A DNA stretch of 64,000 bases from Candidatus Aenigmatarchaeota archaeon (GTDB lineage Archaea; Aenigmatarchaeota; Aenigmatarchaeia; CG10238-14; SCSR01). This document shows, piece by piece, positions 4,577 through 63,904 of this stretch. Positions within the stretch are counted from its first letter, which is position 1; each line of letters begins with the position of its first letter. The position numbers were made by a program, and so were the translations under genes. The notes beneath the pieces are model-generated. The model saw nothing but the letters and a program-made list of their open reading frames with translations, ran no database searches and was not told where the DNA came from. The DNA lies in NCBI GenBank assembly GCA_038998585.1, contig JAVZGQ010000004.1, positions 260 to 64,259 on the forward strand. Reading direction: 5' to 3'.

Positions 4577-4663
4577 TGGGGTTGCTGGGATTTGAACCCA
4601 GGTTACGAGCGCCCGAGGCTTCCACAGGATTTCGTGTCCTAAACCAAGCTAGACTACAACCCC
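4577..4663 (-). tRNA. tRNA-Pro (anticodon CGG) with a 12-nt insertion in the 5' strand of the anticodon stem (about 4620..4631)
   Basis: Hand fold on the minus strand: acceptor GGGGTTG/CAACCCC and T arm CTGGG-TTCAAAT-CCCAG. Removing AATCCTGTGGAA gives stem CGAGC/GCTCG and loop CTCGGGC. No encoded CCA. Confidence 0.8.
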
Positions 4664-4678
4664 TCAATTAGAATTAGT

Positions 4679-5272
4679 TCATTGTTTTATTTCTAAACTT
4701 ATCTTAACTTTGGTTTGAGGACTCCTCAATTTTTCAATTAAAGCATGTTTAATTTCATTTGCAGATTTATCTGATAGAATTGCAACAGTTTTGTTATCAA
4801 TGACAGAATCTTTCCTTATAACAATTTCTTTTTTACTTTTAAGTTTAAGGGCAGGTGAGCCATAGGCAATAAAAAATTCCTCTTCTCCTTCAACTTCAAT
4901 TTTTATTTCAACTCTTTTAGCACTTTTAATAGCAGCTTTAAATTCTTCACTCAAATCTTCACAAGCTTTATCACAATTAACAGCAATTGTAGCGTTGTCG
5001 ACATCCAAATCTTTAGTTATTCTTATCATAAAATTATTGGAGGCTTTGATTTCAGGGTGGCCATAACCAAAAATTTCTTCTTTTGTTGGTTTCAACTCCA
5101 TTAAGAGTTTCCAACCACTTTCTGTGGGTATGTAGGCACCACCAGCAGTATAATGAACCATTCCCTTGCTTTCTAAAGTTTCAAGAACATCTCTAATCAT
5201 ATCTGGTGTTATAGATGGTGATGGCTCTGGAGCAGTTTCAGGCGGTTGTTGTATTTTTCTTATTTCTTTCAT
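4679..5272 (-). CDS. DUF371 family protein with N-terminal winged-helix-like region
   Basis: 197 aa; GYGHPEIKASNNFMIRITKD...AVNCDKA resembles the archaeal DUF371 signature. Confidence 0.5.
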   Translation of the reverse strand: MKEIRKIQQPPETAPEPSPSITPDMIRDVLETLESKGMVHYTAGGAYIPTESGWKLLMELKPTKEEIFGYGHPEIKASNNFMIRITKDLDVDNATIAVNCDKACEDLSEEFKAAIKSAKRVEIKIEVEGEEEFFIAYGSPALKLKSKKEIVIRKDSVIDNKTVAILSDKSANEIKHALIEKLRSPQTKVKISLEIKQ

Positions 5273-6018
5273 TCTATCTTCCTTGCAAAAGTTATGAAAC
5301 CCGTGTGCATTATTCCTATCGTCTTAGGTCTTGTCGTCATCTCAGTTCGCCATTCCCGTACTATATTTTCTACAGTCTTAATATAAGAAAAGTTTAACTC
5401 CCTTATTTTTTTTGTCACAGCAATGACCTCTTCTATTGTTGGCGAGTAAACGACAAGCCAGCCACCAACTTTTAATGCTTTATAAATATGTTTAATAATC
5501 CTTTCAGGATTTTTAATATCTAATGTTACAAGATCAACATTTTTCTCAAAAATCCCCTTTCCAGCATCTTTATTTTTAATCTTGATGAAATTAGAAAGAC
5601 CAAAAATTTTTACATTTTTTCTAGCTATTTTTACCATTTTTTCGTCTTTTTCATAACTCACAACTTTACCTGGTTTTATATAACTTGCCAGAAAAATTGC
5701 TAAAAAACCAGAGCCAGTTCCCACATCAACTATAGAACTTCCTTGGGAGATTCCAGTATAAGCCAAAATCAAGGCAGCATCTTTCGGCATTATTATTTGT
5801 GGTCCTCTTTTAGCTTTCTTTTCTAAAAAATCGATCAAGTTTGGTTTAACTATTCTAAATTCTTTTTTGAGATGAGTTTTTATTTTATCACCAATTTTCT
5901 TCTTTAGAATTTTATTCAAATCAAAAACCCCATCTTTTGTTGAAAGCTTTCCCTTTCTAGCTTCTACCAAGTAAGAAGAATTTTTTGATAAAATTAAAAT
6001 CAATTCTCCCTCTTTCAA
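5269..6018 (-). CDS. trmI: tRNA (adenine-N1)-methyltransferase TrmI/Gcd14 family
   Basis: 249 aa; SAM-binding VDVGTGSGFLAIFLA, N-terminal beta domain, GCD14-like layout. Confidence 0.8.
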   Translation of the reverse strand: MKEGELILILSKNSSYLVEARKGKLSTKDGVFDLNKILKKKIGDKIKTHLKKEFRIVKPNLIDFLEKKAKRGPQIIMPKDAALILAYTGISQGSSIVDVGTGSGFLAIFLASYIKPGKVVSYEKDEKMVKIARKNVKIFGLSNFIKIKNKDAGKGIFEKNVDLVTLDIKNPERIIKHIYKALKVGGWLVVYSPTIEEVIAVTKKIRELNFSYIKTVENIVREWRTEMTTRPKTIGIMHTGFITFARKIE

Positions 6019-10351: not shown

Positions 10352-10955
10352 CTTTAAGTTTTTTTAAGGTTTCCTCATCAAGGATAAGCAACTCCAGTGG
10401 TTGTTCTCTTGGTGTAGAAAGATAAAACTCAATCATGGATGCAAGAGTATCTGCATAATGTAAGATTAAAGCTTCAAAATTTCTTGGAGGTGTTGGCCCA
10501 CTTTCACCAAAATGCGAAGCTACGATATGAATAACATCTTCAGGAAACCCCCTGTAATAAAGTTCGGCCACAGCCAGCATAGAATGATCGAGTAAAATTC
10601 CAGTATGTCTAACTTCTTTATTTTCAATCTTCCATTCAAAAACTTTCATTATATCATGTAATAGAGCTCCAGCTATCAAGTAATCGGTATTTATTGGTAT
10701 ACCATAATTTTTTTCCAAGCTTTCTGCAATTTTAATACAAAGCTCAGTTACAGATAAAATATGTTTCAACAAGTCAGCTCTTTCTACAGTTCCACGACCA
10801 GCTACTGTGAAGGGAGTTCTTACGTTTTCTATTTCTTCTTTCGGGTATTTTTTAAATTCTTCGTGAGAGAGTGCGGGGTCTTTTAAAAATTCAACTACTT
10901 TCTTTCTCAATTTTTCATCTTTTATTTTTTGCGCAATCTCAATCAAACTTTTCAT
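10329..10955 (-). CDS. HD-domain phosphohydrolase
   Basis: 208 aa; LLHDIMK and further His/Asp residues of the HD superfamily; 23-nt overlap with the downstream DHH gene. Confidence 0.65.
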   Translation of the reverse strand: MKSLIEIAQKIKDEKLRKKVVEFLKDPALSHEEFKKYPKEEIENVRTPFTVAGRGTVERADLLKHILSVTELCIKIAESLEKNYGIPINTDYLIAGALLHDIMKVFEWKIENKEVRHTGILLDHSMLAVAELYYRGFPEDVIHIVASHFGESGPTPPRNFEALILHYADTLASMIEFYLSTPREQPLELLILDEETLKKLKGECAEKV

Positions 10956-13190: not shown

Positions 13191-13631
13191 TTATTTCCCA
13201 GCCTTTTCTAATAACTTTACAAACTCAACACTTACTGTTATTGGGATTGGTACAACAGCTTCTATTAGTTCTATCGTGACTTCCCTTTTTAATTTGTCAT
13301 ATCTAGTTACTTTTCCTTTTTCATCTTTGAAAGGCCCGCCAATGATTTCAACAATATCTCCAACATTTAGATCAACTTCTACAGTTTTTGGTTGTAGGAA
13401 TTTTTGGACTTCTTTCAAATCTATAGGTCTTTTTATGAGGCCTCTTATATGCGGGATCATCTGAACTGCCATTTCAATATCTTTTATATCACCTTCGACA
13501 AAAACATATCCTTTTATCTCTTCTGGATGGAAAAGGCTTTGAATGTTTAAATTTTCTACTTTAGCTTTGGCTGCTATAGACTCCATTACAATATTTTCTC
13601 TTCCGATAACAGTTTTAATGCCATAAATCAT
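13191..13631 (-). CDS. spt5: transcription elongation factor Spt5 (NusG)
   Basis: NGN domain plus KOW (GDIVEIIGGPFKDEKGKV); start moved to MIYGIKT (ATG 13631) because the longer track ORF overlaps secE. Confidence 0.85.
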   Translation of the reverse strand: MIYGIKTVIGRENIVMESIAAKAKVENLNIQSLFHPEEIKGYVFVEGDIKDIEMAVQMIPHIRGLIKRPIDLKEVQKFLQPKTVEVDLNVGDIVEIIGGPFKDEKGKVTRYDKLKREVTIELIEAVVPIPITVSVEFVKLLEKAGK

Positions 13632-13639
13632 ATGCACCA

Positions 13640-13831
13640 CTACAAACCAAGAATTATCGATATTATATAAATAATTAGCCCTATCACTCCAAGAATAGCT
13701 ACACCAATAATACAAATTTTAAAGGTTTCCAAAAACTTACTTCTGCTTGGGGTTTTGTTTAATTTTATAACTCGAATGTAATCTTTTAATTTTTCTTTTA
13801 TATTCAACTTCATAGGTGACACCAAAATCAA
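13640..13831 (-). CDS. secE: protein translocase subunit SecE (Sec61 gamma)
   Basis: 63 aa, single C-terminal TM, conserved position between ftsZ and spt5. Confidence 0.8.
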
Positions 13832-14916
13832 TCAACAAAGTCTATTCCTAATATTTTTTCTATATCTTTTCTATCTTCTTTGCTCCATTTTTTCGTCGGC
13901 CCAAATATTTGTGGCGATTTAACACCTGTTATCACGAGCATTGCTCTTAAAGTTTCGCCTAACTCTTTAGCTATTTGTGCTCCCCAAATTATTTTTGCGT
14001 CAGGTGAAAGTTTTGTGGAAACAGATTCAACTATTTGTTGGGCTTCCCTTATAGTTACATCAGGCCCACCAATGACATTTATCAAGGCCCCGGTTGCACC
14101 ATTTATATCAACTGTTATCAAGGGGTTGTTTAAAGCTCTTTCAACAGCTTCAACCGCTCTGTTTTCAGTATCACTTTCGCCTACACCAATCATTGCCAAT
14201 CCTCCATTTTTCATTATACCTCTCACATCAGCAAAATCAAGGTTAACCAAACCAGGTTTTGTAACGAGCTCAGCAATTCCTTTCACAGCGTTGACTAAAA
14301 CTTCATCACAGATTTTGAAAGCTGTCACTAAAGAAACATCCGGAACAACTTCCAAAAGTTTATCATTTGGTATAACTATCATGGTATCAATATGGTCTTC
14401 CAAATTCTCCAAACCTTCTCTTGCATTTGCCATTCTTTGCTTGCCTTCCATGCTAAATGGTAAAGTTACGACAGCAATTGAGAGTATTCCCAATTTGTTT
14501 GCTATTTCTGCAACAACAGGCAAACTTCCTGTTCCAGTACCTCCACCAAGTCCACAAGTCAAGAAAACCATGTCAGCCCCCTGTAAAGCTTTTTTTATTT
14601 CTTCCTTACTTTCTCTTGCAGCTTCCATCCCAACTTTAGGATCGCCACCTGCGCCTAAACCAGAGGTAAGTTCCTTTCCGATTAAGATTTTTTTGTCAGA
14701 GTCTGTGTAAAGCAAATCTTGGGCATCTGTGTTTATTGCTATAGTTTCAGCACCAACAATACCAACTTGCATTAGTCTTGTTATCGTATTGTTTCCAGCA
14801 CCACCAGCACCCACAACTTTTATTTGAGTCTTTCGACTCTCCAGAATTGATCTAATTTCTTCGTCAATTTCTTTTACTCTCTCAGAAGGTTTTTCGATGA
14901 GATGTCTTACTCCCAT
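13828..14916 (-). CDS. ftsZ: cell division GTPase FtsZ
   Basis: 362 aa; GAGGAGNN and tubulin signature [10 protein letters not shown]. Confidence 0.95.
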
Positions 14917-18226: not shown

Positions 18227-18375
18227 TGCAGGGGGTGGGATTCGAACCCACGAAGGGACTAACCCAGCAGGTTCCTTCTTTCATCTTAAATCAAAGCTTA
18301 AGGGTTAGTGTGCATCTTAAGCACCGCCGAGTGCAAAAGCACTCTCTGCCGCCTTTTCCGCTTGGCTACCCCTGC
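18227..18375 (-). tRNA. tRNA-Leu (anticodon UAA) with two insertions: 23 nt at 30/31 (18323..18345) and 43 nt at 37/38 (18273..18315)
   Basis: 149 nt. Acceptor GCAGGGG/CCCCTGC, D arm GCCAAGCGGAAAAGGC, long variable arm TGGGTTAGTCCCTTC, T arm GTGGG-TTCGAAT-CCCAC. Removing 66 nt gives a perfect arm GCAGG-CTTAAGA-CCTGC. Confidence 0.75.
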
Positions 18376-18400
18376 CTAATTCTTAAATTTAACTTAAAAA

Positions 18401-20494: not shown

Positions 20495-20592
20495 TGGACC
20501 GGCCGGGATTTGAACCCGGAGCCTCTTCATAGCAGTTGAACTCATGCCTTTTCCATAATTAAGGAAGCGATCTACCATTGATCTACCGGCCC
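20495..20592 (-). tRNA. tRNA-Ala with 26 nt of intervening sequence (12-nt insertion 20549..20560 plus about 14 nt more within 20530..20548)
   Basis: Acceptor GGGCCGG/CCGGTCC has the G3:U70 Ala identity pair; D arm GATC-AATGGTA-GATC; T arm CCGGG-TTCAAAT-CCCGG. Anticodon GGC (favoured) or UGC depending on the second splice. Confidence 0.7.
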
Positions 20593-24304: not shown

Positions 24305-25144
24305 TCACAGTTCATCTAAAGGACTCTTAACCTTTTTCAACTCTTCTCTTGAAATGTGTGTATAAACTTGGGTTGTGTTGAGAGAAGAGTGCCCCAATAA
24401 CTCTTGTATTTTTCTTATATTTTCTCCAGATTCAAGCAAGTGGGTAGCAAAAGAGTGTCTAAAAGTATGTGGACTAACTTTTTTATTTATACCAATTCTT
24501 TTAATAGCATTTGTAACAATTTTTTGTATTGCTCTTGGAGAAATCTTTTCTTTTCTACCTATAAAAACATATTCTTCAGGATTTCTTCCCTTTACAAAGT
24601 CTTTAATTTTTTCAACCACTTTTTCAGAGATTATAAACATCCTATCTTTTTCGCCTTTTCCTGTCCTCACCCAACCAATTCTTTCATTCAATTCCAAATC
24701 CCCTACTTTTAAGTTTACCAATTCACTCAACCTCAGGCCAGAAGAATAAAGCATCATTACAATAAGTTTGTGTTTTTCATTTTCAATAGAATCAATTATT
24801 TTCTTCACTTCTTCTTTTGTTAAAACCGCCGGGAGCTTCTTTGGAACTTTCGGAGATTTAAAGTTAACAATATTTTTTTTGAGTACCTCGTCATAAAAAA
24901 ATTTTAATGCAGCTTTTATCAAAACTATGGATTTGGCCGAAGCACCTTCTTCCATTTTCTTAGCAATAAAGGTTTTTATATCATCTTCATTTACTTCTTC
25001 AGGACTTTTTTTTACAAATTCTAAAAACTTTTGATTGTAAAACAAATACATCTTTAAAGTTCTTTCAGAAAATCCTCTGAGTTTAATTTCATTTTCCAGT
25101 TTTTTCAGAGCGTCCATATTTAATGTTAATTTGTGTAAATTCAA
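24305..25144 (-). CDS. xerA: tyrosine recombinase XerA
   Basis: 279 aa; catalytic region HTFRHSFATHLLESGENIRKIQELLGHSSLNTTQVYTHI. Confidence 0.85.
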   Translation of the reverse strand: MNLHKLTLNMDALKKLENEIKLRGFSERTLKMYLFYNQKFLEFVKKSPEEVNEDDIKTFIAKKMEEGASAKSIVLIKAALKFFYDEVLKKNIVNFKSPKVPKKLPAVLTKEEVKKIIDSIENEKHKLIVMMLYSSGLRLSELVNLKVGDLELNERIGWVRTGKGEKDRMFIISEKVVEKIKDFVKGRNPEEYVFIGRKEKISPRAIQKIVTNAIKRIGINKKVSPHTFRHSFATHLLESGENIRKIQELLGHSSLNTTQVYTHISREELKKVKSPLDEL

Positions 25145-26166: not shown

Positions 26167-26850
26167 ATGGAAATTTTAAATCGTTTACTAAAAATATTTA
26201 AAAGGAAAACACTTATTCAGCCAGATTCAATCAATCACTCAATCAATCACTCAATCAATCACTCAATCAATCACTCAGAAGAAGATTCATCTATTGAATT
26301 ACAGAAAGAGTCTTTACAACTTGGTTTAGCAGCCGGATATGCAGGAAGATCACTTAAAGAAATAGAATCCTCATTAGTTCGTATAGAATCTCAAATGGCT
26401 TCTAAAGAATGGTTTATCGCCAATTTTAGTGATATTAATAAAATAAACAATCTTCTAGAATCTATAAAAGATACTTTAAAGACTCATGATGAATTAACCA
26501 TGAAACATTTTGAGACAATAGAAAATGCTATTTTTTCTCTTTATGGTATTGCAAATAAAGCACCCGAGCCAATAAAAACAGAGATGATGACCAAAATTAA
26601 TCTTATAGAATCACAGTTACCACTTACACCAAAAATGAAGCAATTAGAGGATATAGTGAAAGAGGTTGGTGAAATTAGCTATACAGATCTTGCAAATAAA
26701 CTTGGGATAACAGAGTCTGCTCTTAGAGGATTTTTAACTCAATGTATAAGAAGAGGCGTCAAGATCCAAAGAATCGAAAAAATGGGTAAAGGTTGGGTAA
26801 GATTTATTCAATCTTCTGATTCAATCAATCACTCAATCAATCAAATCTAA
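26167..26850 (+). CDS. hypothetical protein with (SINH)n repeats at both termini and a C-terminal winged-helix-like domain
   Basis: 227 aa; PDSINHSINHSINHSINHS near the N-terminus, SDSINHSINQI at the C-terminus, ISYTDLANKLGITESALRGFLTQCIRRG HTH-like segment. Confidence 0.5.
   Translation: MEILNRLLKIFKRKTLIQPDSINHSINHSINHSINHSEEDSSIELQKESLQLGLAAGYAGRSLKEIESSLVRIESQMASKEWFIANFSDINKINNLLESIKDTLKTHDELTMKHFETIENAIFSLYGIANKAPEPIKTEMMTKINLIESQLPLTPKMKQLEDIVKEVGEISYTDLANKLGITESALRGFLTQCIRRGVKIQRIEKMGKGWVRFIQSSDSINHSINQI
26227..26278 (+). repeat. tandem 12-nt repeat (TCAATCACTCAA x4 plus a partial copy)
   Basis: Read directly. A 26-nt stretch GATTCAATCAATCACTCAATCAATCA (26224..26249) recurs exactly at 26818..26843. 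Confidence 0.95.
26818..26843 (+). repeat. distal exact copy of the 26-nt repeat
   Basis: Identical to 26224..26249; lies at the 3' end of the same ORF. Confidence 0.95.
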
Positions 26851-30859: not shown

Positions 30860-31099
30860 ATGGCTTATAAAATTTTGCATGAAAAGGACGCTTGTATCGG
30901 TTGTGGCGCATGTGTTGCCGCATGTGAAAAATTTTGGGGGTTTAAAGAAGGAAAATCAAATTTAAAGGGTGCTAAAAAAGTTGGTATAAATTTCGAGCTA
31001 GAAGTTGAGAAACTGGATTGTATAAAAGATTCTGCAGAAGTTTGTCCAGTAAATTGTATCCATATAATTGACTTGAAAACGGGTAAAAAGGTCATTTAG
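30860..31099 (+). CDS. 4Fe-4S ferredoxin-like protein
   Basis: 79 aa from ATG 30860 (GGTGGTGA upstream); CIGCGACVAAC and C-terminal CP motif. Confidence 0.7.
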   Translation: MAYKILHEKDACIGCGACVAACEKFWGFKEGKSNLKGAKKVGINFELEVEKLDCIKDSAEVCPVNCIHIIDLKTGKKVI

Positions 31100-31862
31100 A
31101 TTTATGTTTGGGTTTTTTGAATTTTACAAAAAGTTTGGTAAAACCCCAAATTATAATCAATATTATGCCAGAAATAAGGAAAATCATGAAAATTTGATTG
31201 AGTTGATTAAAAATCAAATCTAGTATATTTTCGCTTATTGGCATTTCTTTTAAAATCTTTTCTGACATCAATTTTTTGAAATATGGTAGTAAGAAATAAA
31301 ATATTCCTATGAAGAGGAACTCGAAGCCAAAAATTTTGAGCCTGCCTGTCCAGGTTTCTATTGAGACGAAAAGTAAAATACCAAATATTATTGTTAATAT
31401 GTAGAGGGGTTTTATGATGCTGCTGAAAAAATTATGTCCCTTAAAACTGAAGAAAACAAAAATATCTTCACCAGTTTTTATTTCTTTTAAACATTCAGTA
31501 ATTTCACATTCGTAATTCTTATAATATGTTTGGTTAAAAGATTTTTCGGCTATTAGATTAAGCATATAGTTAGGGTTTGTATTTATTATTTCAGAGCATT
31601 TCAAGCTTATGTTGTTTGGTAGTTGTATAGATTCATCTGGTTTTAGATTACAATATGTTGCTGTAGCGTTATATATTTCCTCAATTTCTAACGTTCTATT
31701 CTTCACAGCCTCTTTGAAAAGAATTGTAAAAAGATTTTTTGCGTTATCATAGTTAGTAAGATTGTATATGAAAAATGTCAAAATCGATAGAGATAGAAAA
31801 AGTGAGAATAAAAAGAGTGTTGCGGTTTTTGTTATGTTTCTTATTAAACCCATTTTAATCAT
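31092..31862 (-). CDS. integral membrane protein, unknown function
   Basis: 256 aa; N-terminal TM, extracytoplasmic Cys-containing domain, four C-terminal TM helices. Confidence 0.5.
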   Translation of the reverse strand: MIKMGLIRNITKTATLFLFSLFLSLSILTFFIYNLTNYDNAKNLFTILFKEAVKNRTLEIEEIYNATATYCNLKPDESIQLPNNISLKCSEIINTNPNYMLNLIAEKSFNQTYYKNYECEITECLKEIKTGEDIFVFFSFKGHNFFSSIIKPLYILTIIFGILLFVSIETWTGRLKIFGFEFLFIGIFYFLLPYFKKLMSEKILKEMPISENILDLIFNQLNQIFMIFLISGIILIIIWGFTKLFVKFKKPKHKSK

Positions 31863-32565
31863 CTTTAAAAAAACTTAATATTTTTTTCTGTTTCTTTTTA
31901 TTTAAAACTTCTTCTTTTGTTATTCCAAGAGCTTTCAAGACACGCATACTTGCAGGGAGAATCTGATGATTAATATAATATTCTTGATCATATTCACCAA
32001 GTTTGACATCTTCAACTGGTTCAGCTCTATCTGAAATAGAGCCAGAGCCTTTTACTATCACGAAACCTATGACACTCCCCTCACCTATTGGTCTTCCCCT
32101 AGCTTTTGCCTTTTCTGCTGCTCTTACATGCGGTCCAATTTGTTCATATTGGTTTAATGGGCGGGTAATTTGTTCAAAAATTGTCAAATCTTCTAAAGGC
32201 ACTTTTCCCTCTTTAATTTTTTTAATTGTATCGCGAACTAACTGAACCGCTTTAGCAGGATTTTTTTCTCTAAGAATTGTTACTAAAACTTTTCTTTGAA
32301 TTTCTTTTGCCAGTGCACACCAATCTCTACGAACAGTTTTTCGGTGCTAGAAAGCACTTTCGAACCCACGAACTTCTAGATTCCCTTCATAATCAATTAA
32401 AGCGTATCTTTTCTTTGCACCTACTTCACCTTTTTCTCTAGCCACAAAAATCCCAACTTCATACAAACCTCTGAATTCTAGTTCTATAATCCCTGGTAGT
32501 TGTTTGTTAACTTTTTCCGCGAATTCCAAGGCCCTTTTCTTCAAATATTCAATTTTTTCATTCAT
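31855..32565 (-). CDS. polB: family-B DNA polymerase, C-terminal (thumb) cistron, interrupted by a 21-nt TAG-containing element
   Basis: ATG 32565 preceded by GAGGTG. NEKIEYLKKRALEF..LPGIIELEFRGLYEVGIFVAREKGEVGAKKRYALIDYEGNLEVRGFE, then [SAF*HRK], then TVRRDWCALAKE...GPHVRAAEKA...EYYINHQILPA, all in one frame. Confidence 0.85.
32338..32358 (-). other. candidate bulge-helix-bulge mini-intron inside polB
   Basis: Minus strand TTCG(32364..32361)-AAA-GTGCT-TTCT-AGCAC-CGAA(32343..32340)-AAA: 4-bp central helix flanked by two 3-nt bulges plus a 5-bp inner hairpin. Contains the in-frame TAG (32349..32347). Confidence 0.6.
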
Positions 32566-32798
32566 TAATTACACCTCGCTCTTATTATAATATAGAATCT
32601 TAATATTTAGTGAATTCACAATTTTACCTTATAACCACATAACCATCACTACTGAACAGATCTAGAAGATATTCAATACCACACTTTTTGAGAATTAAAT
32701 ATGTTAAATTATATGATCAATTTTCATCTTAGAACTCCAAGATTCAAATTATAGATAAACTTTGTGAAAAATAGATAATTCTTTATTTTTAATTATTT

Positions 32799-34595
32799 TT
32801 AACCAATTGTAGCGAAACAAGAATCAGTATCAGCATAAATTACTTCAAAACCTTCTCTTTTTGCCATTTCTATTACTTGAGTTATATAATATCTTCCAAA
32901 AGCCGCAACCGCGGCTCCACACTCTCTTCTATACCATCTGCTCCCAAAAAACCCGAAATAACCATAGACTGCATTACTAAGTATCTTAAGACCATGTTGC
33001 ATATTATTCAATTTTTTGAGTTCTTTAGAATTTTTCTCAATCTTTTTTATTTGTTCTTTAATTTTTTTTCTCTTTTCAATTAATTCCTCTAAATGTTTTG
33101 GTATGAAACCTTTATTTTTTATACAAAAATGCCACTTGGTTTCAGGAACTTTGTTTTTTTCTTTACATTCAATATGCTCACAATTTAGAGTTTCTGGACT
33201 TATGTTATGAGTAACTATTATTGTTGGGTACAAACTTCTGAAATCAAAAACTAAAATGTCTGAATGAATTCCCTTTTTTGGTTCGATTACTATTGCTCCT
33301 TTGTAAGCTCGATCCATCTTCCTCTTTTCTATTTCTTCTGTTTTTGGTCTATTCGGTATTATTACGTTATCAATAAAGGCCTTTCTCATATAAAAGGCTT
33401 CTACAAGCTGGGAATAAGTGTTCCTACACACATCAAATGCCAAAAGACCAGTTAATCTGCTTAAGGTAAATATTTGAGGCAAGATTAGTTCAGAGAGTTT
33501 AAAAGTTAAGACAGAATCATGTAAGCTATATTCAGCCAATCTTTCCATTTCCTTCTTTTTACTCCAAATTTCCACCATTTCCTTATATTTCAATTCCTTT
33601 TTACCAATTCCAAGCAATTCTTGTGCCACCTCATTCAAAGTTAAAACTTCGCTTTTCAGATTTGCTGATAAAATATGGTCAACGAAGTTGAATAGGTCCA
33701 TATGCACCCTTCCCTTAATTTTTGTTGAGCTTACTCTACCTCTTCTAACTAAATTTATTGTTGAGTTATCTCTCCCAAGTTTAATGGGGATCTTCAGTTC
33801 ATCAGCTCTTTCTTTAAGCTTTGGAAAATCAAAATTATCACCATTATAAGTGCATATGAAGTCTGGATCTTCTTCTTCTACAATTTCTAAAAACCTTTCT
33901 ATTATTTCTTTTTCACTTTTGATTGATTCTACATAATCTGGCTGATTTTCCCAGTGTTCAGATGTTAAGACTATTTTCTTTCCTTTATTTGAAACGAGGC
34001 TTAGCATAATAATTTTTGATTTTCCATTTTCTTCTATGAATTCTATATCAAAGGCCAGGACATTTAGCTTAACATCTTTTTCTCGTTTAATTGGCTTAAC
34101 AGAATTAGCTTTTATTATACAGCTCACTTTATAATTTTCTTTATTCTCCATCTCTTCTCCATCTACCTCAATCCAGTTCATAGGCTCAATTTGCCTGTCT
34201 ATCAAGTAGCGCTTGTAGAGTGGGATATCATACTCATAAGTTTCTTCTACATCTTCCCAATCTTTCACAATTTTTCTTATTTCCTGAATTTTTCTTGGGT
34301 TATCAATCACCACTTTCAGAATTTTTATATCACCAAGCTGTAATTTTTTTTCTGTTACTATAATTTTGAGTATTTTAGTTTCAAGATGTTTTGTGTCAAT
34401 AGTTTCAATTTTTTTCTTAACCTCGCCGATCTTGTCTTTCTTTGGCATTACATAAAAGTAAGGATAAAAGGTTTGATCCAAAACCAAGAAGCTCTTGCCT
34501 TTAGAATCTTTACAGTAAAGTCTGACAGTAGTTTTATTTTCTATTACTGTGTAATCTGCATCTAAAAGGAGTAATTTTTTTTTCAATAAAATCAC
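32799..34595 (-). CDS. polB: family-B DNA polymerase, N-terminal cistron (exonuclease, palm and fingers through motif C)
   Basis: 598 aa; ExoI FDIEF, ExoII YNGDNFDFP, motif A DFRSLYPTII, motif B KILSNAVYGYFG, motif C YADTDS; ends ...CFATIG-TAA. Confidence 0.9.
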   Translation of the reverse strand: MILLKKKLLLLDADYTVIENKTTVRLYCKDSKGKSFLVLDQTFYPYFYVMPKKDKIGEVKKKIETIDTKHLETKILKIIVTEKKLQLGDIKILKVVIDNPRKIQEIRKIVKDWEDVEETYEYDIPLYKRYLIDRQIEPMNWIEVDGEEMENKENYKVSCIIKANSVKPIKREKDVKLNVLAFDIEFIEENGKSKIIMLSLVSNKGKKIVLTSEHWENQPDYVESIKSEKEIIERFLEIVEEEDPDFICTYNGDNFDFPKLKERADELKIPIKLGRDNSTINLVRRGRVSSTKIKGRVHMDLFNFVDHILSANLKSEVLTLNEVAQELLGIGKKELKYKEMVEIWSKKKEMERLAEYSLHDSVLTFKLSELILPQIFTLSRLTGLLAFDVCRNTYSQLVEAFYMRKAFIDNVIIPNRPKTEEIEKRKMDRAYKGAIVIEPKKGIHSDILVFDFRSLYPTIIVTHNISPETLNCEHIECKEKNKVPETKWHFCIKNKGFIPKHLEELIEKRKKIKEQIKKIEKNSKELKKLNNMQHGLKILSNAVYGYFGFFGSRWYRRECGAAVAAFGRYYITQVIEMAKREGFEVIYADTDSCFATIG

Positions 34596-49772: not shown

Positions 49773-49855
49773 TTTTCAAATCTCAAATATTCTATTAATT
49801 ATTTCTTAATTTAAAACAATAGCTCATAACTAAATAAATTTTGTTAAAAAATAAG

Positions 49856-49992
49856 TCCCCGGAGCCGGATTTGAACCAGCAACCCACCGGTTTCTAGTGA
49901 GCAACTGCTGATACCAAGTACCAAAGTACTCAGCTACAGCCGGTTGCTCTACCATTACTCCAGTTATTCTATCCTGTTTGAGCTATCCGGGG
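49856..49992 (-). tRNA. tRNA-Tyr (anticodon GUA) with a D-loop insertion (about 49956..49976) and a 42-nt canonical intron (49892..49933)
   Basis: C1:G72 acceptor CCCCGGA/TCCGGGG; D stem GCTC/GAGC encloses 30 nt; arm ACCGG-CTGTAG[42 nt]A-CCGGT. The canonical intron has a 6-bp inner helix TGAGTA/TTGCTCA (one G-U pair) next to 3-nt bulges. Confidence 0.8.
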
Positions 49993-58138: not shown

Positions 58139-58230
58139 AGCCCCGTGGTGTAGTGGTCAAGCACACAAGGCTCTGGTCATATGAGATTGGTGGTAACCTT
58201 GGGACGCCAGTTCGAATCTGGCCGGGGCTA
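58139..58230 (+). tRNA. tRNA-Gln (anticodon CUG) with a 19-nt intron at 37/38 (58177..58195)
   Basis: A1:U72 acceptor AGCCCCG/CGGGGCT, D arm as in archaeal tRNA-Gln, arm CAAGG-CTCTGG[19 nt]A-CCTTG, T arm GCCAG-TTCGAAT-CTGGC. Confidence 0.8.
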
Positions 58231-58694: not shown

Positions 58695-60125
58695 ATGAAA
58701 AATTATTCTAAGATTCTGAAGAATGTTTTGAAGAAAATTGAACCTTCTGCCCAAGAAAAAAGGGAATTGAATTCTGTTATAAAAAGATGTTTGAAGGAGG
58801 TGAAAAAGGAAGCAAAAAGATTCGATGCAAGACCAATGATTGCGGGCAGCGTTACAAGAGACACATGGCTTCCTGGGAAAAGGGAGTTTGACATCTTCAT
58901 ACTATTTCCACTAAAAATGACTGTAAAGCAGCTTGAGAAGAGGGGACTTGAGATTGGAAAAAAGGTAATTAAAGCGCTTGGTGGAAGCTTCAAGATAGAA
59001 TATGCTCAACATCCCTATGTTTCTGGTAATGTCAACGGTACTGAAATAGATGTTGTGCCGTGCTTTGATGTCAAGACAACAGAAAACCTTAAGTCAGCAG
59101 TAGATCGCACACCTTTTCATGTGAAATATCTCCAAAAAAAGTTGCCAATTAAACTTTCGGCTCAAGTGAGGCTTCTCAAACAATTCTTGACAGCAAATAA
59201 AATTTATGGGGCTGATGCAAGAACACAAGGGTTTTCTGGCTATGTTTGCGAGCTTTTGATTATAAAGTACAAAAATTTCTTAAATGTTCTCAGGCAGGCT
59301 CAAGCTTGGAGGCCAGGCGAGATTATAGATTTGGAGAATTTTTACAAAAAGGAAGAATATTCCAAGTTAATTAAGCTTTTTCCAAAACAAATTTTGATTT
59401 TGATCGACCCAACTGACAAGAATAGAAACACTGCAGCTGCTTTGTCCGCGGAAAACTTTTTCAAGTTCAAGAAGTTGGCAAAAGAATTCCTTGAAAATCC
59501 AAGAGAAGAGATGTTTTTTAAGAGAGAAAAAACACCAATTTCAGAAAAAGAACTGATAGAAAAAATGCTTGAAAGGAAAACAGAATTGATTTTGGTGAAG
59601 TTCTCCCCACCGGATGTTGTACCAGATGTTCTTTGGCCCCAACTTAGGAGATTTGCTGAAAGGTTAGAAAGTATTCTGGAAGAAACAAAATATGAATTTA
59701 AAGTTTTAAGGAGAGATTGTTACACAAATGAAAAAGATTTGGCAATTGTTTTGCTAGAAATGGAGGTTTCAAGTTTGCCTGCTGTGCAGAAGAAGATGGG
59801 ACCAGAGGTCTTTGACCTAGACGACTCTAGGAGATTTTTGGAAAAATATAAAAAGTTGGCGATAAATGGGCCTTTTATTGAAGAAAAAAGCTGGGTTGTT
59901 GAAGTTAGGAGGAAGTTTATGACAGCGAGGGAGAAGATTTTTGATAGCTTAAATGTTGATGCAAGCATCTTAAAAGCCAAAGGAATTCCAAACCACATAG
60001 CAGAGCAAATAGCAAATGGATTTGAATTGATTTCTGACACAGAAAGAATAATTGATATTGTTGGTAAGGATAGGGAATTTGGTATTTTTTTGAAAGAGTA
60101 TTTTGAAAAGGAGGATCTTTCATGA
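58695..60125 (+). CDS. cca: CCA-adding enzyme (archaeal class I tRNA nucleotidyltransferase)
   Basis: 476 aa; GSVTRDTWLPGKREFDIF catalytic motif and archaeal CCA body/tail domains. Confidence 0.9.
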   Translation: MKNYSKILKNVLKKIEPSAQEKRELNSVIKRCLKEVKKEAKRFDARPMIAGSVTRDTWLPGKREFDIFILFPLKMTVKQLEKRGLEIGKKVIKALGGSFKIEYAQHPYVSGNVNGTEIDVVPCFDVKTTENLKSAVDRTPFHVKYLQKKLPIKLSAQVRLLKQFLTANKIYGADARTQGFSGYVCELLIIKYKNFLNVLRQAQAWRPGEIIDLENFYKKEEYSKLIKLFPKQILILIDPTDKNRNTAAALSAENFFKFKKLAKEFLENPREEMFFKREKTPISEKELIEKMLERKTELILVKFSPPDVVPDVLWPQLRRFAERLESILEETKYEFKVLRRDCYTNEKDLAIVLLEMEVSSLPAVQKKMGPEVFDLDDSRRFLEKYKKLAINGPFIEEKSWVVEVRRKFMTAREKIFDSLNVDASILKAKGIPNHIAEQIANGFELISDTERIIDIVGKDREFGIFLKEYFEKEDLS

Positions 60126-61027
60126 TTCAAATAACATTTTTGGGCACAGTTTCAGGAATTCCGAGTAAAGATAGAAATCACCCTGCCATTGTCTTGGAGT
60201 ATTTTGGTGAAGAGAAGGATAGTTTGCTTTTTGATTGTGGGGAGGGAACTCAGAAGCAGCTTATGCAATCTAGAATAAGCTTCATGAAAATAAAAAAAAT
60301 CTTCATTTCACATTGGCATGCAGACCACTTTTCTGGTTTGATCCCTTTAATTCAGACTATGAGCTTAGAAAAAAGGAAAGATGAACTCAAAATTTTTGGG
60401 CCAGAGGCAGAGAGGTTCGTTTCAAACATTTTGGACTTGGGATATTTTGGTTTGAGGTTTCCGATTGAGGCTATAAATGTCCCTTTTGAGGGAAGTGAAG
60501 TCGGATTGATTGATGAAGCTCGAGAGTATCAAGTTTTTTCAATTCCAGTCTTACATACAGTACCGTCAGTGGCATATTGTTTTCAAGAAAAGCCAAGGTG
60601 GAACATAGACACCAAAAAGCTTAGGGAGCTTGGTCTGAGAAGTGGGTCTTGGTTGAAGAGGTTGAAAAAAATTGGGAAAGTAGAATACAAGGGAAAAGAG
60701 ATAAAAATAGAAGATGTGGCAAATCTCAAACCAGGTTTGAAAGTGGTTTATTCTGGCGACACAAAGCCTTGTAGCAACATTTTAGAAATTTCCAAAAACG
60801 CTGATTTGCTTATTCACGATGGAACTTTTCTTGAAGAGGAAGAAGGAAAAGCTCATGCTGATGTGAAGCAAGCGGCAAAAATAGCAAAAGAGGCGAATGT
60901 TAAGCAACTTGTCTTAACCCATATAAGTAGGCGTTACACCGATGTGAAGCAATTAGAAGAAGAAGCTAGAAAAATTTTCCCAAACACAAAAGTCGCTTTT
61001 GACTTTATGCAAGTTAAACTAAAGTAA
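60122..61027 (+). CDS. rnz: ribonuclease Z (tRNA 3' endonuclease)
   Basis: 301 aa; HWHADH metallo-beta-lactamase motif, exosite region; ATGA overlap with cca. Confidence 0.9.
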   Translation: MIQITFLGTVSGIPSKDRNHPAIVLEYFGEEKDSLLFDCGEGTQKQLMQSRISFMKIKKIFISHWHADHFSGLIPLIQTMSLEKRKDELKIFGPEAERFVSNILDLGYFGLRFPIEAINVPFEGSEVGLIDEAREYQVFSIPVLHTVPSVAYCFQEKPRWNIDTKKLRELGLRSGSWLKRLKKIGKVEYKGKEIKIEDVANLKPGLKVVYSGDTKPCSNILEISKNADLLIHDGTFLEEEEGKAHADVKQAAKIAKEANVKQLVLTHISRRYTDVKQLEEEARKIFPNTKVAFDFMQVKLK

Positions 61028-62349: not shown

Positions 62350-62538
62350 TTTTTCACCTTAATGAACAATCTGGAGAAGGGCTTACATTTATTTTTTTGA
62401 CTTAAGAGGTGAGTGAAAATGTTATGAATGCAGAAGAATTGTGGGGGTACTCTTACCGACTTCATTCTCAAGATTTTATGTGATCGAAAGAAATAGTAAA
62501 AAATTTAAATTAAACAAAAATAAGTAAATTAAAAGGAA

Positions 62539-62729
62539 TAGCGGGGTGGAGCAAGCGTAAGCCTCTAAGCCTGGAGTGCTCGTCGAGAATAATACTTGAT
62601 TTGTGTTTTTCGCGAAAGGCTCATAGGCTAAGGCTAAGACACCCGAAAGGCAATCCAATAGCCCAGGAAGGTCGTTGGTTCAAATCCAAAAGATGTTGGT
62701 GTAATACCAGCTTCTGGAGAACCCCCGCT
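62539..62729 (+). tRNA. initiator tRNA-Met (anticodon CAU) interrupted by five putative insertions totalling 115 nt
   Basis: 191 nt. Insertions: 14 nt in the D loop (within 552..570; about 556..569), 585..616, 625..639, 647..668 and 689..720. Removing them gives AGCGGGG-TG-GAGC-AAGCCTGGAGT-GCTC-G-TCGGG-CTCATAA-CCCGA-AGGTC-GTTGG-TTCAAAT-CCAAC-CCCCGCT-A (76 nt) with A1:U72 and three G-C pairs next to the anticodon loop. Confidence 0.7.
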
Positions 62730-62867
62730 ATTCAATCTCTAATTTTATTGATTTTTTTAGTATACAGAAATTTTATTGGAATATAATTCAGTATATTTGT
62801 AGATAGTTTTTGCACTGTCAATCTTTTTTTCATCAGAATTTTAAAAAAGGAAATCAATACTAAAATT

Positions 62868-63821: not shown

Positions 63822-63904
63822 TGGGTCTGGGCGGAGTTGAACCACCTTCTCGGCCTTGTTTGCCCTTGATTAAGGGCCGCGTCCTACCGTTAGACTACAG
63901 ACCC
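63822..63904 (-). tRNA. tRNA-Val (anticodon UAC) with a 12-nt insertion inside the anticodon (63860..63871, position 34/35)
   Basis: GGGTCTG..CGGCC-CTT[AATCAAGGGCAA]ACAA-GGCCG..GGTGG-TTCAACT-CCGCC-CAGACCC-A. Exon GCCC pairs with intron GGGC as a 4-bp helix between 3-nt bulges. Confidence 0.8.

Follow-up and report, generated by a model that had tools for sequence, protein, structure and literature searches.

The whole stretch of DNA analysed here, hereafter the window (64,000 nt, G+C 33%), contains at 62540..62730 of its + strand a sequence that reads as an initiator tRNA-Met gene (iMet) interrupted at five places. The 191-nt precursor, discriminator A73 included, is made of six exons (14, 17, 8, 7, 20 and 9 nt) split by five introns of 15, 32, 15, 22 and 32 nt, located at tRNA positions 14/15, 29/30, 37/38, 44/45 and 64/65, respectively. 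Exon 1 (62540..62553, positions 1-14, AGCGGGGTGGAGCA) provides the acceptor 5' strand, the D-stem 5' strand and A14, and is followed in the D loop by intron 1 (62554..62568, AGCGTAAGCCTCTAA). Exon 2 (62569..62585, positions 15-29, GCCTGGAGTGCTCGTCG) ends at intron 2 (62586..62617), placed in the 5' strand of the anticodon stem; exon 3 (62618..62625, positions 30-37, GGCTCATA) bears the anticodon CAT and is parted by intron 3 (62626..62640, GGCTAAGGCTAAGAC), at the canonical position 37/38, from exon 4 (62641..62647, positions 38-44, ACCCGAA). Intron 4 (62648..62669, AGGCAATCCAATAGCCCAGGAA) lies in the variable region, exon 5 (62670..62689, positions 45-64, GGTCGTTGGTTCAAATCCAA) runs up to intron 5 (62690..62721) in the T stem 3' strand, and exon 6 (62722..62730, positions 65-73, CCCCCGCTA) supplies C65, the acceptor 3' strand and the discriminator. 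All six exons follow one another in tRNA order on the + strand, inside 191 nt, and the gene is neither split nor permuted.

Once the introns, 116 nt in total, are removed, a 75-nt tRNA without CCA is obtained (AGCGGGGTGGAGCAGCCTGGAGTGCTCGTCGGGCTCATAACCCGAAGGTCGTTGGTTCAAATCCAACCCCCGCTA), whose MFE fold is a cloverleaf (-32.5 kcal/mol) with standard stem lengths throughout. CCA is not encoded at the 3' end of the gene. Archaeal initiator tRNAs are marked by the terminal pair A1:U72, which is also a eukaryal initiator mark, by three G:C pairs at 29-31:39-41 and by the pair A11:U24. All of these are found in the spliced sequence: AGCGGGG pairs with CCCCGCT through A1:U72, invariant in 38 distinct family members; the anticodon stem TCGGG/CCCGA, pieced together from exons 2, 3 and 4 and likewise invariant in the family, holds the three G:C pairs; and A11:U24 is present. 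After splicing, CAU stands in a 7-nt anticodon loop, CTCATAA (C32 U33 CAU A37 A38). By its sequence marks the product is thus an archaeal initiator tRNA-Met, predicted to be charged with methionine and to be used by aIF2.

The first-pass annotation had reported the conserved iMet exon blocks, which are indeed all present and in order, but had placed the gene at 62539-62729, one nucleotide short of its true position, and junctions made with its intron coordinates come out wrong (e.g., TCGTC+AGG). The lengths and positions it gave for four insertions are right (32 nt at 29/30, 15 at 37/38, 22 at 44/45 and 32 at 64/65). The D-loop insertion, on the contrary, measures 15 nt instead of 14, as judged from the 10-nt D loop of relatives and from the GGAG:CUCU helix described below, so that the insertions sum to 116 and not 115 nt and the tRNA has 75 and not 76 nt.

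The unspliced gene escapes standard detectors. Neither ARAGORN, run on the unspliced region with intron options and lowered thresholds, nor Rfam, at the gathering threshold and at E up to 10, retrieved it, both returning only spurious partial calls, and no Rfam intron family matched the insertions. ARAGORN had been suggested as a check on the reconstruction and gave a divided answer, calling the spliced product tRNA-Met(CAT) and missing the gene in its unspliced form. Spliced alignment was performed with an initiator-tRNA model having N at the variable stem positions and introns of free length under a fixed penalty; the iMet gene scored 104, against a mean of 31.1 (sd 6.3, maximum 53) for the other 317 tiles of 400 nt, taken on both strands of the window. 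The reconstruction is far beyond chance. Neither the window (64 kb) nor 442 kb of sequence from relatives' loci, their iMet genes set aside, contained an intact initiator anticodon arm, and the genome probably holds no uninterrupted initiator copy elsewhere. Standard tools also overlook at least two further candidate tRNA genes of the window; brute-force intron removal followed by ARAGORN -i proved too permissive a test for two further candidates.

A TATA-box-like element, TTTAAATTAAAC (62504..62515, +), lies 25-36 nt upstream of +1 as a putative archaeal promoter, from which transcription would start, and a TTTAAATTA motif occurs upstream at a like distance in five syntenic relatives (L241, L243, L246, L248 and L250). 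A T-rich tract, TTTTATTGATTTTTTT (62743..62758, +), 13-28 nt past the gene, is a likely transcription terminator, and T-runs of like kind are found 3' of the gene in relatives. The genes for RNase Z and for a class I CCA-adding enzyme (the latter at 58695-60125) lie 1.5-3.8 kb upstream of iMet, and the window also encodes RNA polymerase subunits, EF2, EF1-alpha, ribosomal proteins, Nop5, fibrillarin, L7Ae, Kae1 and TrmI, a repertoire of archaeal information-processing functions. The best database matches of the CCA enzyme are 84% identical to it and are named Candidatus Aenigmatarchaeota archaeon (NCBI). Pfam scans of 50 window ORFs retrieved no tRNA-intron endonuclease and no RtcB; RtcB was not found in the window or in the relatives' loci searched, and tblastn with an approximate Methanocaldococcus EndA query gave no match in the window or in 132 loci.

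Splicing motifs of the five introns

In a BHB motif two 3-nt bulges, on opposite strands, are separated by a 4-bp helix, and the cuts fall after the second base of each bulge. With the register derived from the canonical 37/38 case, the central helix is formed by exon bases -6 to -3 from the 5' cut and intron bases -6 to -3 from the 3' cut. Each of the five introns fits this geometry in exactly one register, with 4, 4, 3, 3 and 3 of the four central pairs in introns 1 to 5, respectively. For intron 1 the central helix is G9GAG12:CUCU (4/4, with one G-U), the bulges are CA|A and AA|G and the inner helix is GC:GC; intron 2 combines U24CGU27:GCGA (4/4) and bulges CG|A and AA|G with an outer helix of 2 bp and an inner one of 3 bp. 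The other three motifs each contain a central-helix mismatch: C32UCA35:UAAG in intron 3 (3/4, C34-A mismatch; bulges UA|G and AC|A), C39CCG42:CAGG in intron 4 (3/4; bulges AA|A and AA|G; inner helix GGC:GCC) and A59UCC62:GGAG in intron 5 (3/4, core UCC:GGA; bulges AA|A and AA|C), the last closed by a long inner hairpin, AGA-U-GUUGGU/ACCAGC-U-UCU. The inner helix h' measures 2-3 bp in all five introns. The outer helix h has 2 bp in introns 2 and 3 only and none in introns 1, 4 and 5, which are relaxed (HBh'-type) motifs. Relaxed motifs are reportedly left uncut by strict alpha4-type enzymes (PMC5829648), and since three of the five motifs are devoid of the outer helix, it is reasonable to suppose, with the first-pass annotation, that the Aenigmatarchaeota lineage possesses a broad-specificity splicing endonuclease.

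Direct repeats blur the boundaries of introns 1, 4 and 5, where the other registers yield at most two pairs (intron 1) or one (introns 4 and 5); intron 4 admits four equivalent registers, a single one of which exceeds 1 pair. The ends of intron 1 are ambiguous from sequence alone owing to an AAGC direct repeat. A 14-nt D-loop intron was rejected in favour of 15 nt, as only the 15-nt register makes the 4-bp GGAG:CUCU helix, and a D loop of 10 nt, AG(C/T)(C/T)TGGAGT, is found in all 19 listed relatives with an uninterrupted D arm; in relatives without intron 1 it reads AGCCTGGAGT. An alternative helix considered for intron 5, UCCA:UGGA, was discarded, leading either to asymmetric cuts or to a product 2 nt too long, and in the relative L146 the same shifted register reaches just 3/4 pairs, with no gain. 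The first-pass annotation had found no convincing BHB in the D-loop insertion, having assumed 14 nt, and this view is overturned by the complete helix of the 15-nt register. Its TCGT:GCGA pairing for intron 2 holds, at 4/4, as do the three of four central pairs it gave for insertions 3, 4 and 5, and an initial A and a final AA are shared by four of the five introns rather than by three.

All five central helices sit inside single exons, so that the primary transcript can adopt each motif and its introns need not be removed in a set order. Folded in isolation, the modules of introns 1 and 5 adopt the motif expected or one closely resembling it, and that of intron 2 a similar stem; the MFE structure of the full-length precursor holds the modules of introns 2 and 5. 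A structure containing all five modules lies about 22 kcal/mol above the precursor MFE (-43.0 vs -65.4), thus splicing may be sequential or protein-assisted.

Intron turnover and exon conservation in related genes

Related genes were collected by scanning metagenomes with a pattern that required an insertion at 29/30 (at least 120 loci listed), and were parsed with an IUPAC spliced-alignment model followed by boundary refinement. This left at least 61 archaeal genes, corresponding to at least 54 distinct precursors, the window gene included; L133, L216 and L237 (with 7/8 introns) and L187 and L221 (poorly parsed) were left out of the statistics. On a 50-point scale rating cloverleaf and loops, the spliced products of the listed archaeal genes reach 49-50. 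Among the 54 distinct listed precursors, a sample biased to intron-rich genes since the 29/30 intron was required by the pattern, one has a single intron, four have two, 20 have three, 13 have four, 15 have five and one (L195) has six. The introns of L195, at 10/11, 20a/21, 29/30, 37/38, 43/44 and 59/60, measure 19, 12, 12, 16, 16 and 19 nt and fully account for its 169 nt.

At least 14 intron sites are occupied among the 54 listed precursors (10/11, 13/14, 14/15, 17/17a, 20a/21, 29/30, 37/38, 43/44, 44/45, 45/46, 51/52, 53/54, 59/60 and 64/65), and the 7/8 site is used in other relatives, outside the 54. With the window gene counted, introns are present at 14/15 in 11 of the 54, at 37/38 in 46 (the site being empty in 8/54), at 44/45 in 10 and at 64/65 in 5. 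The 29/30 intron is found in 54/54, as the pattern required, and is missing at the syntenic locus of L241, L243, L246, L248 and L250; each of the five window introns has its site unoccupied in some relative. Introns at 37/38 and 44/45 each occur without the other and are thus independent units.

The geometry described for the window gene recurs throughout the family. At least three of four central pairs are formed by 95.6% of the 202 introns of the 54 listed members (62% are 4/4), compared with 18.5% of shuffled introns and 11% when the 3' partner is slid, and an inner helix of at least 3 bp is found in 62% of the 202 introns vs 3.5% in shuffles. L146 is interrupted at all five sites used by the window gene and its exons are identical at 72/75 positions; introns 1 to 5 are 82, 44, 67, 64 and 81% identical between the two genes, with inner helices that differ and are still complementary, and the 14/15 intron of L146 forms the same GGAG:CUCU helix as window intron 1. 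The 3' end of intron 3, UAAG|AC, occurs also in L148 and L186.

Orthologues at the same locus, found through the CCA enzyme, differ in their introns. The gene order CCA enzyme, RNase Z, four small ORFs, iMet and NTPase is kept in L241, L243, L246, L248, L250 and L169/L240, and many metagenome loci, that of the six-intron L195 included, keep iMet beside an NTPase homologue. To be compared with the 14/15, 29/30, 37/38, 44/45 and 64/65 introns of the window are those at 7/8, 20a/21 and 37/38 in L241 (GCA_038997405.1; CCA enzyme 84% identical to that of the window), at 17/17a, 29/30, 37/38 and 43/44 in L169, L240 and L252 (81%), at 7/8 and 20a/21 in L243, L248 and L250 (77-80%), and at 7/8, 20a/21 and 64/65 in L246, on a 723-kb contig (74%).

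The exons, on the contrary, are held nearly constant. In 38 distinct spliced sequences among the listed matches they are 93% identical per column, with 57 of the 75 columns invariant, and variation is nearly confined to the acceptor pairs 5-7:66-68 and to the T stem. All 798 pair cells of the cloverleaf are standard in these 38 sequences, counts that lean slightly toward structure, cloverleaf pairing having been a criterion of the boundary refinement; two-sided changes are seen in 86 pair cells, 0/500 shuffles reach these values, and sliding the partner columns lowers pairing to 28-47%. Many of the covarying pairs straddle an intron. Intron sets that differ sharply between orthologues whose exons are intact are the opposite of what a pseudogene pattern would be.

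Similar introns are found at different sites. Among the listed sequences, 326 of 2202 cross-site intron pairs are at least 62% identical, vs 88 when one partner is shuffled. Window intron 5 (64/65) and the 51/52 intron of L127 are identical at 26/33 positions, a value reached by 0/2000 shuffles; the T stem carries the two sites on its opposite strands, with alike exon contexts, GUCC|GU and AUCC|AA at 51/52 and 64/65, and the introns share the same 3' end (…UGGA(U/G)AA). Introns thus appear to move between sites offering the same exon tetramer, and the likeness between 64/65 and 51/52 introns fits the transposition model for Thermoproteales introns, attributed to Fujishima 2010 in a later paper (PMC4033280).

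A probable functional, five-intron initiator tRNA gene and its known counterparts

The explanation we favour, with a probability of roughly 0.88, is that a Candidatus Aenigmatarchaeota (DPANN) archaeon carries here a functional gene for initiator tRNA-Met, broken by five short BHB introns. The anatomy of the sequence, the geometry of the motifs and the conservation of the gene through intron turnover are established by the comparisons above; transcription, the processing enzymes and the mature product are predicted from them. The 191-nt precursor would be made from the upstream TATA-like element. At each intron, the four exon bases 3-6 nt before the 5' splice site would pair with four bases close to the intron 3' end, two 3-nt bulges would flank the resulting central helix and a small intron hairpin would close the motif. 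Cleavage by the archaeal splicing endonuclease EndA would then follow the second base of each bulge, and the six exons would be sealed together by an RtcB-type ligase; the ends would be trimmed by RNase P and RNase Z, and CCA would be added by the CCA-adding enzyme. The proposal of an exceptionally fragmented initiator tRNA, already advanced in the first-pass annotation, is backed by the reconstruction, by the BHB geometry of all five introns and by the 54 listed distinct sequences.

Our view of the genome is 64 kb wide and standard detectors reject the locus, which might be taken to indicate a silent or decaying pseudo-copy that accumulated insertions, an intact working initiator gene lying elsewhere in the genome. 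This is very unlikely: the exons are flawless, with their invariant columns and fully compensated stem changes, the splicing motif stands in the exact register needed at every insertion, and the gene has a promoter-like TATA element before it and a T-run after it. Moreover, iMet is found at the same syntenic locus in all relatives examined, and no other intact initiator arm was seen across the window and the 442 kb flanking the gene in relatives. Equally improbable, in our opinion, is a real gene with another number of introns or other boundaries, as would be the case if the D-loop intron had 14 nt (leaving a tRNA of 76 nt whose D loop has 11), if one insertion stayed in the product, or if two neighbouring introns were excised together. 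The AAGC repeat, the fact that the 14-nt version folds as a cloverleaf too and the small size of exons 3 and 4 (just 8 and 7 nt) would allow for it, but the 10-nt D loop of all 19 listed relatives with an uninterrupted D arm, the 4/4 central helix obtained in the 15-nt register only and the same GGAG:CUCU helix in the homologous L146 intron argue for the 15-nt intron, and the separate occurrence of 37/38 and 44/45 in relatives argues against joint excision.

Hardly any weight can be given to a route that dispenses with EndA and RtcB, whether by self-splicing, by joining in trans pieces that are transcribed separately or by rearrangement of the DNA. Group I and group II introns have a ribozyme core of hundreds of nucleotides, and introns of 15-32 nt, with no Rfam match, are far too short for them; the exons follow one another on a single strand, inside 191 nt and downstream of one promoter-like element, and the BHB geometry is highly non-random. 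EndA and RtcB were nonetheless not found in the sequence searched, and three of the motifs are relaxed, which is what speaks for such a route.

If the window gene is, as we favour, a functional iMet spliced through BHB motifs, ten precise cuts and five ligations would be needed to mature it, a demanding task for EndA and RtcB with exons of 7 and 8 nt. Five introns are two above the published ceiling of three, and they fall in an essential tRNA with a single function. Extending the reading to the Aenigmatarchaeota, we lean, with less assurance, toward a lineage-wide hyper-fragmented iMet gene having up to six introns, at least 14 sites and exons down to 7 nt, with fast intron turnover and apparent movement between sites. 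Such a gene would represent the most heavily interrupted tRNA gene class described, and it would explain part of the 'missing tRNA' problem of DPANN genomes, given that at least two more candidate tRNA genes of the window likewise escape standard tools. Predicted tRNA sets of DPANN archaea are said to be incomplete, and disrupted genes that escaped identification are suspected (PMC5829648). Since ARAGORN and Rfam miss iMet, automated DPANN annotation would report the initiator tRNA as absent, and claims on tRNA complement and genome completeness would be affected. Furthermore, syntenic orthologues with about 80% protein identity, different intron sets and related introns at different sites offer a natural series in which gain, loss and transposition of BHB introns can be followed.

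As for known systems, part of the spliced sequence is also that of bacterial tRNA-fMet: the 31 bases CTCATAACCCGAAGGTCGTTGGTTCAAATCC (spliced exons 3-5) are identical in many bacterial initiator genes, and a scan of a genome collection with CTCATA..ACCCGAA..GGTCGTTGGTTCAAATCC listed at least 120 loci, all of them bacterial, intronless tRNA-fMet. Bacterial tRNA-fMet, however, has the C1 mismatch instead of A1:U72 and no introns, whereas the window gene is archaeal in both context and marks.

Multiple-intron tRNA genes of Thermoproteales were reportedly described by Sugahara in 2008 and Fujishima in 2010. Those genes, e.g., in Pyrobaculum calidifontis (PMC4033280, PMC8450103), resemble iMet in having short BHB introns at canonical and non-canonical sites, relaxed motifs, similar introns at different sites (which points to transposition) and rapid gain and loss. 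They differ in belonging to TACK and in having three introns at most, against five here (six in L195) in the initiator of DPANN Aenigmatarchaeota, with exons down to 7-8 nt. Three introns per gene is also the maximum for archaeal tRNA genes in two papers (PMC8450103; PMC4033280), in agreement with the figure given in the first-pass annotation, and no report of more than three introns in one tRNA gene, DPANN and Aenigmatarchaeota included, was found in the literature searched, a body that leaves most subscription journals outside its scope. The broad-specificity EndA systems of DPANN (ARMAN-2 epsilon2 type, PMC3239211; L3-loop alpha4 types, PMC5829648) have the DPANN context and the non-canonical intron positions in common with iMet; those studies do not cover tRNA genes of Aenigmatarchaeota and include no gene with more than three introns. 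The nuclear tRNA genes of Cyanidioschyzon merolae (PMC3728597) likewise have multiple, ectopic BHB-type introns, which interrupt the D arm, position 37/38 and the T arm, and their stepwise removal was demonstrated by RT-PCR; this organism is a eukaryote, its genes have up to three introns and some of them are permuted, whereas the window iMet is colinear (PMC3728597). The class of mechanism is therefore a known one, whereas the number of introns is a record, the lineage is new for the phenomenon and the target is the initiator tRNA.

Interrupted tRNA genes elsewhere in the window

Insertions in the anticodon region were observed in four of the five tRNAs detected by Rfam in the window, with 23 nt against 11 in the model for the tRNA at 4577-4663 (-), 35 against 9 at 20495-20592 (-), 22 against 3 at 58139-58230 (+) and 15 against 3 at 63822-63904 (-). 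The identity assigned by ARAGORN to the gene at 4577-4663, tRNA-Ser(CGA), looks wrong, because its variable region is short in the Rfam alignment.

The window also contains a tRNA gene and a tRNA-like gene that neither ARAGORN nor Rfam detected. In the tRNA gene, at 49855-49992 (-), the acceptor (CCCCGGA/TCCGGGG, with C1:G72) is accompanied by an intact T arm (GCTGG TTCAAAT CCGGC) and by a 42-nt insertion following the anticodon loop CTGTAG. This gene looks like a tRNA-Tyr(GTA) carrying an intron at the canonical 37/38 site and a D-loop insertion of ~19-21 nt. The tRNA-like gene at 18228-18376 (-) displays an acceptor (GCAGGGG/CCCCTGC), a D arm (GCCAAGCGGAAAAGGC), a T arm (GTGGG TTCGAAT CCCAC) and a variable-arm-like stretch (GGGTTAGTCCC). 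The gene probably encodes a class II tRNA-Leu and would be interrupted by two or more insertions, which add ~64 nt.

Other genes of the window

Genes for tRNA processing are grouped in the window, namely those for a LigT-like 2',5' RNA ligase/phosphoesterase (386-922, -), Kae1 (1258-2247, -), a TrmI/GCD14-type methyltransferase (5269-6018, -) and the CCA-adding enzyme together with RNase Z (58695-61027, +). Neither EndA, the tRNA splicing endonuclease, nor the ligase RtcB was found among them.

A tyrosine recombinase gene of the phage integrase family is located at 24305-25144 (-), in a region that includes stretches devoid of long ORFs as well as an ORF (26167-26850) having no Pfam match; it may represent the site of an integrated element. 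The family B DNA polymerase (31092-34595, -) appears to be split, with a 598-aa ORF (32799-34595, -) coding for the exonuclease domain together with the first half of the polymerase domain, and a 115-aa ORF (31855-32202, -) coding for the polymerase C-terminus, separated by a gap of ~600 nt. An adjoining 256-aa ORF gave no Pfam match.

Sequences flanking the initiator tRNA gene in relatives

Directly 3' of the initiator tRNA-Met (iMet) gene of L246, a locus on a relative's 723-kb contig, lies a 282-aa ORF (13586-14434, -) with a faint match to LAGLIDADG_3.

On the 5' side, a conserved element of 28-30 nt, (A/G)GCGGG…GAAAGG…CTC(C/T), abuts iMet in the syntenic relatives (L241, 13787-13816; L243, 15788-15815; L246, ~13414-13443; L248, ~10365-10394; L250, 9812-9839), is also found upstream in L165, and is not present at the iMet gene of the window. 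Its first bases duplicate the 5' strand of the acceptor, and the spacing between the TATA-like box and this first acceptor copy equals that between the TATA-like box and +1 in the window. Candidate explanations for the element are a leader, an exon duplication and an additional intron.
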